Source of the DNA: Flavobacteriales bacterium
GTDB lineage: Bacteria > Bacteroidota > Bacteroidia > Flavobacteriales_F > PHOS-HE28
Length of the DNA stretch: 64,000 bases
NCBI GenBank assembly: GCA_016713875.1
Contig: JADJOI010000003.1
Coordinates: forward strand, 437,092-501,091
Reading direction: 5' to 3'
Each line of letters begins with the position of its first letter. Within the stretch, counting starts at the first letter, position 1. The notes under the pieces are model-generated. The model was not told where the DNA came from. It did no database searches and saw only the letters and a program-made list of their open reading frames with translations. This document shows positions 15,403 through 63,600 of the stretch, one piece after another. The position numbers and the translations under genes are program-made.

Positions 15403-18287
15403 CGCAGTTCGTTGCTGAGGTAACGGGCGGTGTGGCCTCTCCCCATGCGCACGACCTCCTCGGGCGTGCCGCGGGCCACGATGCGTCCGCCGCCATCGCC
15501 GCCCTCGGGGCCCATGTCGATCACATGGTCGGCCACCTTGATGATGTCCATGTTGTGCTCCACGACGAGCACGGTATTCCCTTGGTCGACCAGCCGGTCG
15601 AGCACGGCGATCAGCTGCCGCACATCCTCGAAGTGAAGGCCGGTGGTGGGCTCGTCCAGGATGTAGAGCGTGCTGCCCGTGCCGCGACGGCCCAGCTCGC
15701 TGGCGAGCTTGATGCGCTGGGCCTCGCCCCCGCTGAGGGTGGTGCTGCTCTGCCCGAGGGTCACGTACCCGAGGCCGACGTCCATCAGGGTGCGCAGCTT
15801 CATGGCCAGCTGGGGCAGGTCGGCGAAGTGCTCCAAGGCTTCCTCCACGCTCATGTCCAGGACGTCGGCGATGCTCCGGCCCTTGAAGCGCACCTCGAGC
15901 GTCTCGCGGTCGTACCGTTTGCCACGGCATGTCTCGCAGGGCACGTCCACGTCCGGCAGAAAGTTCATGGCGATCGTGCGCACCCCGGCGCCCTTGCAGG
16001 TCTCGCAACGGCCACCGGCGGTGTTGAACGAGAAGCGGCCGGCCTTATAGCCGCGCACCTTCGCTCCGGGAAGCTGGGTGTATAGCTGGCGGATGGCGTC
16101 GAACAACCCTGTGTAGGTGGCCGGATTGCTACGCGGCGTTCGGCCGATCGGGCTCTGGTCCACTTCGATCACCTTGTCCAGGTGCGCGAGACCGTCCACC
16201 TTGCGGTAGCGCAGAGGCCGCGTGTCGGCGCGGTGGAAGTGGCGGGCCAGGATGGGGTACAGGGTGTCGCCGATGAGGGTGCTCTTGCCACTGCCGCTGA
16301 CGCCGGTGACGCAGATGAAGCTGCCGAGCGGAAGTACAAGGTCCACATCCTGCAGGTTGTGGCCCGAGGCACCGAGCACGGACAGGCGGTGCCCGTTGCC
16401 GGCGCGGCGCAGACGGGGCACGTCAATGGCCAGTTCGTTGCGCAGATAGCGGCCGGTGAGGCTGTCGGCCTTGCGGACCTCCGCGGGCGAGCCCTGGGCC
16501 ACGATGCGGCCGCCATGCTCGCCGGCCCCGGGCCCGATGTCGATCAGGTGGTCGGCCTGCAGCATCATCTCCTTATCATGCTCCACCACGATGACGCTGT
16601 TGCCACCGTCGCGCAGATGGCGCAGGCTGCCGATCAGCCGGTGGTCGTCGCGCTGGTGCAGGCCGATGCTGGGCTCGTCCAGGATGTACAGGACCCCGGT
16701 GAGCTGGCTGCCGATCTGGGTGGCCAGCCGGATGCGTTGGGCCTCACCACCGCTCAGCGTGCGGGCGCTGCGGTCGAGGGTGAGGTACTCCAGGCCCACA
16801 TCGAGGAGGAAGCGGGTGCGCGCGGTGATCTCCTTCACCACATCGCGGGCGATCAGGGCCTGGCGTCCCTGGAGGCGGTCCAGCAGCCCCTGGGTGTGCG
16901 CATGCAAACGGTCCAGTGGCAGGGAGGCGAGCTCGTGGATGTTGAGCCCGTCGAGGCGGAAGTGAAGGGCGGTGCGCTTCAGCCGGGTTCCCATGCACTC
17001 GGGGCAGGTCACCATGTGGGTGAACTGCTCGGCCCACTTCTGGGCCTGGGCCCCGCCTTCCTTCGCCTGCTCCAGGATGAAGGGGATGATGCCCTCGAAC
17101 TGCACGGTGCGGTCGCTCAACCCCACCTGGCTGCTCACGCGGAGCGGCTCATCCAGGCCGTTGAGCAGCGCGGCCACCACATCGTCGCCCATCTCCTCCA
17201 CGGGCGTGTCCAGATCATGCCCGAAGCCGGCGAGCACGGCCTCGACCTGGCGGAAGACCCAGGAGCTCTTGAAGCTGCCCAGCGGCAGGACGGCACCGCG
17301 CCGGATGCTCTTGCCGCGGTCCGGGATGATCTTGCCGATGGCCACGTCGGTGACCTGTCCGAGACCGCTGCACCGTGGGCACGCGCCATAAGGGCTGTTG
17401 AAGCTGAAGAGGTTCGGCTCCGGCTCCTCGTAGGCGATGCCGCTGGTGGGGCACATCAGGTGCCGGCTCAGGTAACGGGGCTGGGTGCCGTCCGGCGGCA
17501 GTGCCATCAGGTTGCCCTTCCCGAGCTTCAGGGCCAGGTCACAGGCATCGGCCAGGCGTTTCCGGCCGGCGCCGGCCTGCCCGGCGGCCGGCACCTTCAG
17601 CCGGTCGATCACCACCTCGATGTCGTGCACCTTGTAGCGGTCCAGGCGGGGGCGCGTGGTGAGGTCGATCACCTTGCCATCCACACGGGCGCGCAGGAAA
17701 CCCTGGCGCAGCAACTGCTCGAAGAGCTCCTTGTAGTGGCCCTTCCGACCTCGCACCACCGGTGCGAGCACGAGCAGCTCGCTGCCGGCATGCTCCTCCA
17801 TCAGCAGGTCCACGATGCGGGCATCGGTGTAGCGGACCATGCGCTCGCCTGTCACGTAGGAGTAGGCATCCGCCGCTCGGGCGTAGAGCAGGCGCAGCAG
17901 GTCGTAGATCTCCGTCACCGTGCCCACGGTGCTGCGCGGGTTGCGGCTGATGGTCTTCTGTTCGATGGCGATCACCGGGCTCAGCCCTGTGATCAGGTCC
18001 ACATCGGGGCGCTCGATACCTCCGAGGAATTGCCGTGCATAAGCGTTGAAGGTCTCGATATACCGGCGCTGCCCTTCGGCGTGCAGAGTGTCGAAGGCCA
18101 GGCTGCTCTTTCCGCTTCCGCTCAGGCCCGTGATCACCACGAGCTGATCGCGGGGGATGACCACGTCGATGTTCTTCAGGTTGTGCACCCGGGCGCCAAG
18201 CACCTCGATGGCGGCATCGCCGTTCGATGGTGCGGTGGCGCTTGCGGTGTCCGCAGCCTCACTGGTCCTGCGCACCTTCCGCGGCAT
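15399..18287 (-). CDS. uvrA: Excinuclease ABC subunit A
   Basis: 962 aa. Two ABC ATPase modules with Walker [11 protein letters not shown] and [13 protein letters not shown] signature LSGGEAQR twice. Zn-finger Cys pairs. Full-length. Confidence 0.95.
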
Positions 18288-51117: not shown

Positions 51118-51150
<33 letters not shown>

Positions 51151-51316: not shown

Positions 51317-51385
51317 GGGGACCTCGAACCCGCCGACTGCCTCCAGCAGGTATATGCGCCAGAGCCTGAAGGAACGCCGCCAAGT
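51317..51385. repeat. Copy of a short intergenic repeat element related to 61363-61435
   Basis: acctcgaacccgccgactgcctccagcaggtatatgcgccagagcctgaaggaacgccgccaagtga versus acctcgaaaccgccgcctgcctccggcaggtaaatgcgccagaagctggtgaccaacgccgccaagta: about 80% identity over about 68 nt. Confidence 0.6.
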
Positions 51386-51514
51386 GATCGCTACGTTCAT
51401 GGAAAAGGCGTAGGGTATGGCGGCATCATCATCCGTGTGGCTCGCTCCCACTCCATGCGGCACCGAACTGATCGGTGTCATAGGTCCGGCTTCAGTCCAC
51501 TCGGAACATTTGAT

Positions 51515-60337: not shown

Positions 60338-60725
60338 TGTCAATGTGTTGGTGAGCATGCTCATCAACCATGACACCGCAGGGATCAAGTGGTTGTTCAA
60401 CAAGCAAGCCTTCCGGGTGATGGTCTCATCCGGATTGTTGGGTGAGTTGGAAGAAGTCCTGATGCGACCGCAGTTCAGGCGCTACCTCACGTTGGCTGAA
60501 GCCGATCGGGCCGTGGATCGGATAGCGAACCGGTCAAGCCTGGTAGAGACTGCCTTCCAAGTGCGCCCCATCTGCCGCGACCCGAAGGACGACTACTTGC
60601 TCGCGCTGGCCAAGAAGGGCAAAGCCGACTTCCTGATCACCGGCGATGACGATCTACTCGTGCTGAAGAAACACGGCAAGACCCGGATCCTGAAACCTGC
60701 TGCATTCAGGAAGGAGTTCTTGTGA
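60303..60725 (+). CDS. PIN-domain toxin (type II toxin-antitoxin system, VapC-like ribonuclease)
   Basis: VVDVNVLVSML N-terminal acidic motif. Conserved Asp residues (DPKDDYL, ITGDDD) of the PIN fold. 140 aa. Confidence 0.75.
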   Translation: MPARKRVTLVVDVNVLVSMLINHDTAGIKWLFNKQAFRVMVSSGLLGELEEVLMRPQFRRYLTLAEADRAVDRIANRSSLVETAFQVRPICRDPKDDYLLALAKKGKADFLITGDDDLLVLKKHGKTRILKPAAFRKEFL

Positions 60726-60744
60726 GCGCCCATGATCAGCGACC

Positions 60745-61470
60745 AACCCGTGCCTTCGGCAGGCAGGTGCGCGATGAGCTGCTGACCTTCTCGCCTTTGC
60801 GTAGCCGCTTCGGCGGAGCAAGGCCGCAAGGAGCCACGACAAGACGCCCTTCCACAACCTGCGGACGCACTCCACGAGCAGCAGCCCCGGGCGGCGACCC
60901 GGGGGAAGCCGCCGAGCGCGGGGTGCCACGGCCAACCTCGTTCCGGCGGCATCGTCCCGGCGCGTCGGGACGACCCTGCGGGCGAGCGTCCTCGTTCGGC
61001 CATCCGGCTCCCGCTGTGTCGGGATGAAACAGTTGCTCCTCGATCGGAGACTTCGCTCCAGTATCCTCACTCGTCGCGCCCCTGCCTGCGGCAGGCAGGT
61101 TGGCTGGCCGAACGATCACCGCTCGTGCCATCCGTTCGAGGTTGGCCGAGGCACCCTTGGAGCACACCCAATGGGCCAAGGATGCCGACCTGCTGCGCCT
61201 TCGCGTAGCCGCTTCGGCGGAGCAAGGCCCACCCTTGCCGCCGAGCATCGACCCCCGGTCCACGAACCGGGGCTGGCCGAGGAGATGGCCGACATTGCAG
61301 GCCGCAGAACTGTCACGTCGGGCGGAGCCGAGACGTACCTCGCACATGACCTGCACGTGGACCTCGAAACCGCCGCCTGCCTCCGGCAGGTAAATGCGCC
61401 AGAAGCTGGTGACCAACGCCGCCAAGTACCCCGTGCCTCGCCAAGCCGTAGCTTCAGCGAAGGCTGGGAA
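60745..61470. repeat. Non-coding repeat-rich region: dispersed short direct repeats and palindromic cctgcc-N1-3-ggcagg hairpins
   Basis: gcgtagccgcttcggcggagcaaggcc at 60800 and 61203. cggcaggcaggt at 60755 and 61088. Perfect 19-nt palindrome cctgcctgcggcaggcagg at 61081-61099. cctgcctccggcagg at 61376-61390. No protein-like ORF. Confidence 0.6.
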
Positions 61471-61586
61471 AAGGCGAAGGGCGTGGCGACGAAGTGGGAT
61501 CGGTTGTAGGTCTTATCGTTCAAGTGTTGGTAAAAGGCTTTCGTCGTTTGATTAGATAGTTCTATACTTGCACAACACATTGTGCG

Positions 61587-61898
61587 TTGGAAGTACATAT
61601 CGATGACAAGAACCTGCTGAAGTTGTACTCCGGGGAGACTCCCAAGAAGCTGCGCGGATTGCCGCCGCAGGTCGTGGAGAAGTTCTTTGCCGCAGTGCAG
61701 GTCCTCATGGCATCCAACAGCATCACCGACATCTGGAAGTTCCCCAGCTACAATTTCGAGAAGCTCAAGACCAAGGGCATCTGTTCAATGCGACTCTCCG
61801 GCAAGTATCGGTTGGAGATGACCGTGCAGTGGACCAACCCCGAGCAGACCATCGGCATCTTCACCCTTACAGCCATCAGCAACCACTACGGCGACTGA
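61587..61898 (+). CDS. higB: HigB-like toxin (RelE/ParE superfamily, 'plasmid maintenance system killer')
   Basis: 103 aa. Pattern K.L.KLY...P......V.....L.AS.I.D........EKLK.KG..S.R....YRL......N.....I....H is characteristic of the HigB family. Immediately upstream of the HTH-XRE gene. Confidence 0.65.
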   Translation: MEVHIDDKNLLKLYSGETPKKLRGLPPQVVEKFFAAVQVLMASNSITDIWKFPSYNFEKLKTKGICSMRLSGKYRLEMTVQWTNPEQTIGIFTLTAISNHYGD

Positions 61899-61937
61899 CC
61901 AGCCTTCCGCAACCACGCATCCCGAACCCTCCGCACC

Positions 61938-63047
61938 ATGGCCAACCTCACCAACATCCGCCCGGCACAGGTCTTTCCACCTGGGTACTTCATCAAGGAC
62001 CAACTGGAACAGCGCCAATGGAATCAGAACGAACTGGCCGAAGTACTGGGCATTACTCCTCGCCATCTAAGCCAAGTGATGAACGGCGAAGCACCGCTCA
62101 ACTACGACCTGGCCATCCAACTCGGACAAGTCTTCGATACCAGCCCGCAGCTTTGGTCGAACCTCTATCTGAGCTATGCAATGTGGAACGAAGAAGCAGA
62201 AGAGGAAGCCAGTGCTACGGAAGTCAAGGCGGGCATCTACGAGCGCATGCCGATCCGCGACATGGTGAAGAAGGGCTGGCTGAAGGAGCCCAAGAATTTG
62301 AAGGATCTCGGGCAGCAAGTGGCCAAGTTCTGGGGAAAGGATGACGCTGACCTGTCCTTCATAGATACGGAGTACTCGCCCTGCCTGAATAGGAGCACCA
62401 CCTCTAAGGCGAACCAGTACAACACCAGCTATGCGCTGACGTGGTACCGCAAGGCGAGCATGTGCGCGGAGAAACGGGAAGTACCTACCTACAACAAGAA
62501 GAAGCTGGAAAGCCTGTATGACAACCTCTACTCGTACACCGCCAAGACAGCGAGCATCAAAGTCTATCTGGAGAAACTTAACGAGTGTGGTGTCAAGTTC
62601 CTCGTGCTGCCCCACTTGGAGAAGACCTATCTCGATGGCGCAGCCTTCAAGCAAGGGAGCAACCCGGTAGTGGTGTATACGGCCCGTTATAAGCGCATCG
62701 ACAGCTTCTGGTTCACGTTGGCGCATGAGATCGCGCATGTGCTGTTGCATCTCGACAAGCAACGCCCGATCATTCTGGATGATCTGCACGAAGGAGAAGC
62801 GACCGAGATGGAGAAGGAAGCGAACGAGTTAGCTGGGGAGAAGCTCCGCCACGCGGAGATCGCAGCCCGCTTCCGTGATTCAGGACAAGTACACCCGAAG
62901 CGGATCGAGGCCTGCGCGCAGCTCTATGGCGTACATCCATCCATCGTAGCGGGCAAGCTGGCACATGATGGATTGGCTGGGTATCGCGTGGTGCAGCGGT
63001 ATAGTGAGGATGTGCTGGGGCATATCCCAAGAAGCTACTTGAACTAG
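61938..63047 (+). CDS. higA: HigA-like antitoxin: N-terminal XRE-family HTH fused to ImmA/IrrE (M78) zinc metallopeptidase domain
   Basis: HTH (QNELAEVLGITPRHLSQVMNGE). HExxH zinc motif in WFTLAHEIAHVLLH. 369 aa. Confidence 0.8.
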   Translation: MANLTNIRPAQVFPPGYFIKDQLEQRQWNQNELAEVLGITPRHLSQVMNGEAPLNYDLAIQLGQVFDTSPQLWSNLYLSYAMWNEEAEEEASATEVKAGIYERMPIRDMVKKGWLKEPKNLKDLGQQVAKFWGKDDADLSFIDTEYSPCLNRSTTSKANQYNTSYALTWYRKASMCAEKREVPTYNKKKLESLYDNLYSYTAKTASIKVYLEKLNECGVKFLVLPHLEKTYLDGAAFKQGSNPVVVYTARYKRIDSFWFTLAHEIAHVLLHLDKQRPIILDDLHEGEATEMEKEANELAGEKLRHAEIAARFRDSGQVHPKRIEACAQLYGVHPSIVAGKLAHDGLAGYRVVQRYSEDVLGHIPRSYLN

Positions 63048-63049
63048 GA

Positions 63050-63477
63050 AGCCGTCACGGGCATCCTCGATGCCGCGCTGGTTACCGCCCACGCTGAAAG
63101 GCTGGCACGGTGGACCACCGATCACGATGTCTGCCTGCGGAAAGTCGAAGCCGACCTCGAGTTTAACAGCGTAGCACTCGCTGCCCAAGTTGTGGCGGCA
63201 GCTGGCGGCCGCCGAGCCTGCCCCGGCCCCAGAGCCGGGGTTCATCTCGAAGCCGATGGTCTTGTAGCCAGCGTCCGCCGTACGGCGGACCAAGGCCAAG
63301 CCACCGCAGCCATGCCTACGCTGAAGCTTCGGCAGGCAGGCCCGCGAACAGGTCCAGCACCACCCGGCCTTTCTCTTCAGTAAGGCGTTGTCTTGGATAG
63401 GCCTCCTCCTCGGTAGGCGCGCCTGCCTGCCGAAGGCAGGGCACCAACAACTCATTGATCTCCTCGATATATCCCAT
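63050..63477 (-). pseudogene. DNA (cytosine-5)-methyltransferase remnant: frameshifted in motif I and truncated after motif IV
   Basis: Motif I is split between two frames (RVVLDLFAG| in one, |CGGLALV in the other, separated by about 31 nt containing cctgcctgccgaag). Motif IV GGPPCQPFSVGGNQRGIEDARDGF is intact. Similarity ends at about 63050, exactly at the 3' end of the higA gene. Confidence 0.6.
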
Positions 63478-63600
63478 CACACGCTGCCAATCTTTTCTTA
63501 GCCGCCATAGCGCTTTGGCGAAGGCGGCTTGGCGATCGGCGTGGTGACAAAGTAAGCTCCGTTGAGATCCATCAACGTTGAGCACCTTTCTTTGAGGAAC

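Follow-up and report, generated by a model that had tools for sequence, protein, structure and literature searches.

The window analyzed here is a 64,000-nt stretch of a Flavobacteriales bacterium genome (GenBank assembly GCA_016713875.1, contig JADJOI010000003.1, positions 437,092 to 501,091). Near its right end, about 800 bp separate a PIN-domain toxin gene from higB, and a first-pass annotation had described this stretch as a non-coding, repeat-rich spacer between two toxin-antitoxin modules. Alignment with intact genes of related genomes indicates that positions 60732-61509 (+) instead represent a decayed paralogue, designated copy A, of a gene encoding a 114-aa MazG-like nucleotide pyrophosphohydrolase. 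This dead gene has very probably been invaded by at least nine short inserts from recurrent miniature palindromic families, i.e., E2 (34-35 nt, with GTAG), P (CCTGCC..GGCAGG, 15-20 nt), Q (CCCCGGN..NCCGGGG, about 20 nt) and a 236-nt miniature inverted-repeat transposable element (MITE).

The underlying MazG-like gene

Copy A runs from ATG to TAG and consists of ten gene-derived pieces (323 nt) and nine inserts (455 nt, 58% of the pseudogene), which tile the region without gaps (Table 1). The tiling was derived from an alignment of intact gene DNA (L024 and L020; sequences used for comparison carry L numbers) with copy A and two further copies, B and C, and all nine inserts were absent from the intact genes in this alignment. 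When the gene pieces were joined (positions 1-323), they matched the intact gene at L024:340-684 (positions 1-345) in a single high-scoring segment pair with 80.8% identity (E 1e-69), whereas the unedited sequence 60732-61509 aligned just in a series of short stretches, none longer than 44 nt. The end-to-end alignment of the insert-free pieces, set against the fragmentary alignment of the unedited region, is decisive for a decayed gene plus insertions.

A protein reconstructed mostly from copy B, with one stretch from copy A and with the inserts removed, passed the Pfam MazG-like model PF12643 (34.4 bits; cutoff 27), and an NCBIfam search with the same reconstruction gave no match. It had 337 homologues, the top ones being intact 114-aa proteins with up to 76% identity over 100% coverage, found in Flavobacteriales metagenome-assembled genomes (MAGs) and designated nucleotide pyrophosphohydrolases. 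In copy A itself the MazG-like domain has no intact reading frame, as the nine inserts shift the frame repeatedly, and the region is therefore a pseudogene rather than a gene. The earlier statement that the region holds no credible open reading frame (ORF) holds in that no intact gene is present and the two longest ORFs lack a Pfam match, but the DNA at 60732-61509 is gene-derived. The non-coding spacer proposed at first thus gives way to a decayed coding gene with homologues, the very outcome that the first-pass annotation had set against its own description. Only the AT-richer 61510-61586, directly upstream of higB, may plausibly have been intergenic from the start. Neither a sigma-70-like nor a terminator-like site was found in 60726-61586; the one promoter-like match of the scanned stretch falls inside higB.

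Copy B (L014:13413-13774) lies 3.4 kb downstream of copy A, just past the window end, and sits within a called 156-aa ORF (L014:13304-13774). It is 96.4% identical to 61146-61509 (364 nt; local BLAST against relatives). Copy B begins ATGATCAGCGACCAAC TGCGCGATGAACTGCTGGCCTTC CGCAAGGAG..., which translates to MISDQLRDELLAFRKERDWEQFHN, and the window carries this same start from 60732, broken by the P hairpin i1 and a 34-nt GTAG hairpin. In related genomes, the MazG-like gene is found directly 3' of a gene for a 307-aa HNH_2 nuclease (L020-L023, L026 and L027), and the two form a conserved pair. Copy B, which is also dead, occupies this position 3' of HNH_2 in the source genome; copy A is therefore the displaced duplicate, located between the PIN stop codon and higB.

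Copy C had been noticed previously as the second copy of a 68-nt element. The similarity itself was recovered (61359-61427 (+) matches 51319-51385 with 84% identity, E 9e-13, and continues with gaps to about 51425), but the matching DNA is the 3' part of the pseudogene with a hairpin insert and not a separate repeat element. Since i7, in degenerate form, and part of i6 are already present in copy C, this copy represents an older fragment of the same lineage. Copies C, A and B, partial or complete, are all in direct orientation, and the proposal that the region bears scars of repeated recombination in a defense island was to this extent partly right.

Three further observations were made on these copies and their relatives. 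A patch of 15-17 nt in gene piece g3 (60834-60850, CACGACAAGACGCCC) differs at nearly every base from the corresponding GCGACTGGGAGCAG of copy B and the intact genes, with near-identical flanks; none of the insert families accounts for it. About 170 nt upstream of copy C lies a perfect intergenic (AC)15 microsatellite (51120-51149), possibly prone to slippage, and a gene for a secreted protein begins downstream of it near 51514. In some relatives (L024-L026), the intact MazG-like gene is followed, at a distance of about 460 nt, by a 507-aa reverse transcriptase gene (RVT_1), which suggests that the HNH_2/MazG-like pair belongs to a larger defense cassette associated with reverse transcriptase.

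Table 1. Features of copy A, copy C and the neighboring genes. Positions are those of the window unless an L number is given; a slash within a sequence marks the insertion point.
Feature	Position	Strand	Description	Basis
g1	60732-60747	+	gene piece	alignment
i1	60748-60767	+	20-nt P-family hairpin CCGTGCCTTCGGCAGGCAGG	absent from copy B and intact genes
g2	60768-60790	+	gene piece	alignment
i2	60791-60824	+	34-nt E2, core CGCCTTTGC-GTA-GCCG-CTT-CGGC-GGA-GCAAGG	absent from copy B and intact genes; matches phylum-wide family
g3	60825-60880	+	gene piece	alignment
iQ1	60881-60904	+	Q hairpin CCCCGGG-CGGCGA-CCCGGGG; replaces ~8 nt of gene	perfect 7-bp stem
g4	60905-60920	+	gene piece	alignment
i3	60921-61156	+	236-nt MITE, terminal inverted repeats GGGTGCC(A)CGGCCAACCTCG and CGAGGTTGGCCGAGGCACCC	repeats, BAC5 homologues
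P nested in i3	61081-61099	+	perfect palindrome CCTGCCTGC-G-GCAGGCAGG	absent from BAC5 MITE copies
g5	61157-61191	+	gene piece	alignment
i4	61192-61226	+	second E2, 35 nt	in copies A and B; absent from intact genes; empty site GACCT/GCCC
g6	61227-61251	+	gene piece	alignment
iQ2	61252-61272	+	Q hairpin CCCCGGT-CCACGA-ACCGGGG, net +15 nt	alignment, stem, family pattern
g7	61273-61298	+	gene piece	alignment
i6	61299-61332	+	34-nt insert of no recognized family; replaces ~10 nt of gene	alignment
g8	61333-61375	+	gene piece	alignment
i7	61376-61394	+	P hairpin CCTGCCTCCGGCAGG + TAAA, 19 nt	in copies A, B and C
g9	61395-61434	+	gene piece	alignment
i8	61435-61466	+	32-nt hairpin CCAAGCC-GTA-GCTTCAGC-GAA-GGCTGG	empty site CCCGT/GGA in intact genes and L082
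g10	61467-61509	+	gene piece, ends TAG	alignment
upstream DNA of higB	61510-61586	+	AT-richer	sequence
copy C	51319-51425	+	diverged 3' fragment of the pseudogene lineage	84% over 69 nt; weaker similarity back to ~51270
C5 DNA methyltransferase	63048-63477	-	5' fragment with DLFAG and PCQ motifs, truncated at the higA 3' end	alignment to L019
methyltransferase insert	63495-63527		+33 nt, upstream of ATG	vs L019
methyltransferase insert	63422-63439		+18 nt, P family	vs L019
methyltransferase insert	63366-63404		+39 nt, singleton	vs L019
methyltransferase insert	63312-63342		+31 nt, directly after DLFAG	vs L019
methyltransferase insert	63273-63290		18-nt perfect palindrome, net +6 nt, singleton	vs L019
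methyltransferase replacement	63207-63239		33 nt for 12 nt; holds most of the Q hairpin 63221-63240	vs L019
HNH_2 MITE	L014:12453-12615 (window 64039-64201, 39 nt past the window end)		163 nt; splits HNH_2 (starts 63601) between codons 146 and 147	

The inserts and their recurrence

The insert junctions showed no target-site duplication beyond one or two ambiguous bases. For i1, copy B and the intact genes have a clean empty site (CCAAC/TGCGCG) without duplication, while the empty site of i2, GCCTTC/CGCAAGG, is itself a small palindrome. The empty site of i7 (ACCGCCG/TGCGCC) was found both in intact genes and in L082:3516-3616, a MazG 3' fragment of a further Flavobacteriales MAG with 96-98% identity in the flanks. 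Insert i8 (fold -10.2 kcal/mol, z -2.3) has, as judged by eye, an E2-like architecture; a descriptor search for that architecture matched just the three E2 copies and not i8.

The MITE i3 has arms (60921-60951 and 61126-61156) that are 81% complementary, and it is homologous to a repeated element of the Flavobacteriales MAG BAC5 (L035, L040, L042, L075, L124 and L139). Of i3, copy B keeps just the final 11 nt, from the right terminal repeat, and of iQ1 the first half; the 250 nt between them are deleted, and copy B hence once had i3. Two other accounts of i3 were considered. The left arm could have been an inverted copy of the flanking gene, but the BAC5 alignment identifies it as the MITE's own terminal inverted repeat; the same alignment rules out that copy B never carried i3, which was lost through the 250-nt deletion.

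The short repeats and hairpins listed in the first-pass annotation were all recovered where reported, with positions shifted by a few bases at most, and they are not random when compared with shuffled sequences. The 25-mer GCGTAGCCGCTTCGGCGGAGCAAGG occurs exactly twice (60799-60823 and 61203-61227; 0.00 copies expected from 100 shuffles), within a similarity that extends over 47 nt at 91% identity. GGCAGGCAGG occurs four times, always within 60758-63431 (0.44 expected), and CCTGCC-N(1-7)-GGCAGG is found at 61081-61099 (the 19-nt palindrome), 61376-61390 and 63422-63440 (0.23 expected). The reported recurrence of these motifs in the methyltransferase fragment was likewise borne out, with GGCAGGCAGG reaching 63431 and a P hairpin at 63422-63440. 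The Q family, CCCCGGN-N6-NCCGGGG, had not been noted before; its exact copies in the window are confined to 60885, 61253 and 63221. Exact P, Q and E2 motifs are all confined to 60.7-63.5 kb, with none in the other ~60 kb of this densely coding window.

Perfect stems of at least 7 bp are about three-fold enriched here, and it is the recurrence of hairpin families, not hairpin density alone, that is the unusual feature of the region. Folded singly, the inserts do form hairpins, with modest z-scores (-0.2 to -2.3), so folding energy alone does not set them apart. No third-codon-position GC periodicity was detected in any frame over 60631-61651, the longest such stretch in the window. The window sequence is also present in a wastewater Flavobacteriales-type MAG (GCA_963853025.1) and, in near-identical form, in Danish activated-sludge MAGs (GCA_016703685, GCA_016720105 and GCA_016717445). 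Many short-read contigs of other samples stop inside the region (at 60841, 60925, 60962, 61100, 61213 and 61233), as short-read assemblies break at this locus because of its repeated or palindromic DNA.

The E2 family across Bacteroidota

A scan of 185,579 species genomes with the 23-mer GTAGCCGCTTCGGCGGAGCAAGG and a metagenome scan in which the inner 12 nt of E2 were left free yielded at least 120 genome loci and at least 120 metagenome contigs, respectively; counts given here refer to the matches listed. The E2 core was found in Bacteroidales, Flavobacteriales, Cytophagales and Chitinophagales, including MAGs of Rikenellaceae, Cyclobacteriaceae, Chitinophagaceae and Chryseobacterium. The element is multi-copy, as seven listed 8-kb stretches came from one contig and one 8-kb locus held three copies. 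The metagenome contigs ranged from 33 to 64% GC and contained variants. In contrast, E2 was absent from 2.9 million IMG/VR viral contigs, from PLSDB plasmids, from GenBank phages and from Rfam. No description of the E2 or P sequences was found in the literature, including work on REP (repetitive extragenic palindromic) sequences and MITEs of Bacteroidota, and the E2 family is apparently previously undescribed.

The conserved block spans about 35 nt (C-T-N-CGCCTTCGC-GTAG-CCGCTTCGGCGG-A-GCAAGG), which makes E2 an imperfect palindrome of 34-35 nt, within the 20-40 nt of REP sequences. The fold begins with an outer stem of 7 bp in which one C is bulged and which is 97-100% paired across variants, followed by a 3x3 internal loop (GTA/RRA), the helix GCCG/CGGC and a triloop, CTT (84 copies) or CTA (31). 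Opposite GTA, the 3' side of the internal loop reads AGA (53), GGA (46) or GAA (17). An inner hairpin CCGC-TTCG-GCGG with a UUCG tetraloop had also been considered; the variants found in metagenomes favor the shifted register GCCG-CTT-CGGC, since GCCG/CGGC was paired in 97-100% of matches, with G:C, G:T or A:T as the closing pair, as opposed to just 56-98% for CCGC/GCGG. Beyond the block, the flanks are unrelated among copies yet often complementary to each other, with an outer stem of at least 8 nt in 41 of 116 copies, as compared to about 11 with shuffled flanks.

Among loci with at most 55% GC, E2 was intergenic in 80 of 97 copies. It showed no orientation bias relative to neighboring genes (19, 15, 14 and 13 copies in the four classes), which argues for an element acting at the DNA level. 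The P palindrome was found empty (CCTGCCTGCCGGCAGGCAGG) in L071 and L099, whereas in L046, L118, L141 and many metagenome matches E2 was located exactly at its center. The two motifs that had been recorded separately in the window are therefore parts of one nesting system. A composite long palindrome, GAAAATCAATTTACTCCCCCCT [E2] TTGGGGATGGGGTAAATAAATTGATTTTC, was also seen in unrelated samples (L052, L110, L113, L119, L178, L194, L199, L218, L259 and L260); its copies differ in the variant of the E2 internal loop, and the composite has thus diverged in place.

Neighboring genes affected by the same process

The methyltransferase fragment downstream of higA was compared with a variant contig from a wastewater metagenome (L019) that has an uninterrupted frame (MGYIEEINELLVPRHTEEAVVLDLFAGCGGLALGFEAAGYKTIGFEMNEPASASYRHNLG...). 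In about 330 nt, the fragment carries six hairpin-forming insertions or replacements, while the alignable flanks differ by about 5%. Up to 63206, L019:2064-3332 (ERZ965218 k127_484731) and the window share 99.9% identity, and beyond this point L019 continues into the uninterrupted 5' part of the methyltransferase gene with a different 422-aa gene upstream. The end of identity at 63206 indicates a recombination breakpoint near this position.

The MITE that splits the HNH_2 gene has terminal inverted repeats of 18-20 nt (AGAGCGCATCTCAGAATGAC), and its center is a GTAGCC-GGT-GGCTAC hairpin; the HNH_2 protein is otherwise 83-90% identical to intact homologues. Both this insert and i3 (terminal inverted repeats of 20-31 nt) fit the size of MITEs (70-300 bp). 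The junctions of the two MITEs showed no duplication longer than 1-2 nt, and no parent insertion sequence was found in the sampled DNA.

Some additional observations concern the surrounding defense genes. The 369-aa protein designated HigA (61938-63047 (+)), which combines HTH_3 and Peptidase_M78 domains, matched the PADLOC model PD-Lambda-2_B (E 4.9e-49), and higB and higA may accordingly belong to a PD-lambda-2-like defense system rather than to a plain toxin-antitoxin module. Outside the window (L014/L015 13877-15922, window 65463-67508), a radical-SAM protein with a prokaryotic-viperin-like PADLOC match adjoins a TIR-domain effector. The TIR gene may be decaying as well, as it encodes 337 aa in one assembly while its call in the source genome has just 193 aa. 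Within the window, a 163-nt direct repeat (15453-15615 and 16476-16638, 72% identity, 1023 nt apart) is accompanied by a second pair in register (15633 and 16656, 89%), a pattern that suggests duplication within a two-domain, ABC-ATPase-like gene.

Mechanism and alternative explanations

The insertions are precise and lack a recognizable target-site duplication, the families recur, and the elements nest (P in the MITE, E2 at the tip of P). The suggestion that the repeats are REP/MITE-like elements is well supported by these palindromic inserts, by empty sites, which both a paralogue and other genomes show, and by related copies far beyond this genome. We propose that E2, P, Q and the MITEs would be non-autonomous DNA mobilized in trans, and that each inserted hairpin would offer a new hairpin target. 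The elements could have piled up here because dead defense-island genes are rare harmless sites in a tightly packed genome, and because hairpins give new targets. Apart from the upstream sequence of higB that it carries, the region would have no function. It is a real possibility, though not one that we would assume, that E2 is a phylum-wide, near-invariant hairpin of about 35 nt, copied precisely and without duplication into hairpin tips and unconstrained DNA, and that with P and Q it is a main eroder of dead genes in these genomes and builder of long nested palindromes. As to the mover, a structure-recognizing single-strand DNA enzyme of the HUH/Y1 type (similar to RAYTs, the tyrosine transposases linked with REP sequences) is tentatively put forward as the likeliest candidate, with another hairpin-specific recombinase as the alternative.

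A number of observations weigh against this interpretation. A regular-expression search in six frames for the HUH-Y1 motif found none in the window and 1.53 Mb of loci centered on E2, a sample with 240 E2 copies overall, and ORF clustering of 120 loci revealed no shared neighbor gene and no linked transposase. Current activity is not supported by the five near-identical assemblies, which differ by 1-3-nt indels and show no presence/absence polymorphism of hairpins. Singletons are seen in i6, with no further copy in any sampled locus, in the methyltransferase insert of 39 nt and in the perfect palindrome of 18 nt, and in several cases gene sequence was replaced instead of being cleanly interrupted; these events need not all represent transposition, and some may have arisen from palindrome-generating replication errors. 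In the source genome, the DNA covered here holds three E2 copies, all inside pseudogenes. E2 also fails the canonical rule for REP sequences, as its GTA forms one side of an internal loop and the following G opens the 4-bp inner helix. Finally, almost no diverged E2 copies (up to 6 mismatches) were detected in 890 kb of sampled loci, which fits selection or homogenization better than selfish insertion followed by decay. The uniformity of E2 and its near-lack of decay are not explained by simple selfish spread, and they may reflect either selection on the element or continual re-copying from a constrained source.

These last points bear on the alternative that E2 is a selected host cis-element, i.e., a binding site or a DNA or RNA structural signal for a conserved Bacteroidota protein, which has been spread by selection. 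The extreme uniformity of the sequence across a phylum spanning 33-64% GC, the virtual lack of decayed copies and the absence from viral contigs, phage records and plasmids would all be expected of such an element, and the GTA/RRA internal loop presumably resembles protein-binding loop motifs. Nevertheless, E2 copies in dead genes cannot serve those genes, E2 occurs in both orientations, and new copies with clean empty sites could not arise without some means of copying. We consider a cis-element unlikely as the sole explanation; because new E2 copies need a copying mechanism, this alternative complements mobility and does not replace it.

It is less probable still that the hairpins are local mutational products of template switching, fold-back replication errors or palindrome-generating repair in unconstrained DNA. 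Such processes could account for the replacements that create perfect palindromes (e.g., GTCCGCCGTACGGCGGAC in place of GGCTTCGAGGCC), for singleton inserts such as i6, for two insertion sites that are mini-palindromes themselves and for the very high ratio of hairpin insertions to substitutions. They do not account for an unchanged E2 sequence shared by hundreds of unrelated loci across bacterial orders, for P and Q turning up repeatedly, with sequence unaltered, at independent sites of this and other genomes, or for the classical terminal inverted repeats of i3 and the HNH_2 insert, and no insert is the reverse complement of neighboring sequence.

It had also been suggested that the DNA between the two toxin-antitoxin modules is transcribed into a functional, structured non-coding RNA, whether associated with these modules, retron-like or of another kind; this appears very improbable, even though the region forms many stable hairpins and the E2 fold is conserved across metagenomes with changes that preserve base pairing. 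The region resolves fully into pieces of a protein gene and unrelated inserts, there are no terminator-like T tails, and E2 shows no orientation bias relative to genes elsewhere. No Rfam 15 match was found at gathering thresholds in the whole window, and two matches at E<=10 in 60600-63600 were at chance level. With regard to a retron, no reverse transcriptase was found in the window or among the called genes at 51.6-71.9 kb, and no retron RNA family matched. That the region's two longest ORFs, of 161 aa (61024-61509, +) and 229 aa (60736-61425, -), are real protein genes is scarcely credible, despite their annotation by gene callers in public assemblies and a copy B frame that by chance has no stop between the MazG start and stop codons (156 aa), as neither has a Pfam match or third-codon-position GC periodicity, both alternate between the MazG frame and other frames and run through hairpin inserts, and the 156-aa form has no homologues but the same pseudogene (P0043).

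The preferred interpretation, a dead MazG-like gene filled with short mobile palindromes, has consequences for annotation, as an 800-bp "intergenic" stretch and two ORFs in public assemblies would be a MazG-like pseudogene. Ordinary pseudogene finders miss such genes because homology is broken into pieces of 16-56 nt. The defense islands of this lineage appear to decay by hairpin insertion, and the methyltransferase and HNH_2 genes nearby show the same pattern. E2 is an unusually small and conserved repeat, with a core shared across orders, nesting at hairpin tips, no phage or plasmid copies and no linked transposase, and a protein that mobilizes or binds it could be sought by co-occurrence analysis across Bacteroidota genomes.

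Comparison with known repeat systems

Small palindromic repeats in protein genes, sometimes several per gene, are also found among the Rickettsia palindromic elements, but these are inserted in frame and the genes stay functional, whereas here the frame is shifted and the host genes are dead. The GC clusters or "byp" elements of yeast mitochondria are short GC-rich mobile hairpins in intergenic and coding DNA, with byps being skipped by the ribosome so that the genes work; these systems are eukaryotic and organellar, and nothing at the present locus suggests ribosome skipping. IS1397 and ISKpn1, and members of the IS110/IS1111 group, are full-length insertion sequences that target REP hairpins and encode their own transposase. 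They aim at the loop or center of a palindrome, as E2 does at the tip of P, but E2 is 35 nt long and non-coding.

Bacterial MITEs such as Correia/NEMIS, RUP and Nezha resemble i3 and the HNH_2 insert, which are non-coding, have terminal inverted repeats, interrupt genes and have related copies in another genome. They differ in that the inserts described here have no clear target-site duplication and no parent insertion sequence, and P, Q and E2 (15-35 nt) are far smaller. MITE clusters are usually genus-specific (PMC11602168).

Similarity to the REP/REPIN-RAYT system is seen in the imperfect palindrome of E2 with its GTAG tetranucleotide, its size within 20-40 nt, its multi-copy, mostly extragenic distribution in other Bacteroidota, in either orientation, and its insertion without target duplication. 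For GTAG repeats, nesting in other palindromes and occasional genic location have been reported, although for Bacteroidetes CGTC-type repeats alone were listed and GTAG-type repeats were not reported (PMC3733652). RAYT subclasses 2.4 and 2.6 do occur in Bacteroidetes, with "atypical" hairpins, and the REP rule places GT[AG]G 0-2 nt 5' of the hairpin foot, with a basal stem of 7-20 bp (PMC6006769). In E2, by comparison, GTAG is located in an internal loop between two helices and the inner stem has 4 bp. While a REPtron consists of a RAYT flanked by repeats, no RAYT was present near any sampled E2 copy. A core that stays identical from order to order, as in E2, is also unlike REP families, each of which is as a rule confined to one species or genus. 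Thus, the pseudogene part of this locus is ordinary, and it is the element families of the REP/MITE kind, E2 above all, that are unusual in their conservation and nesting.

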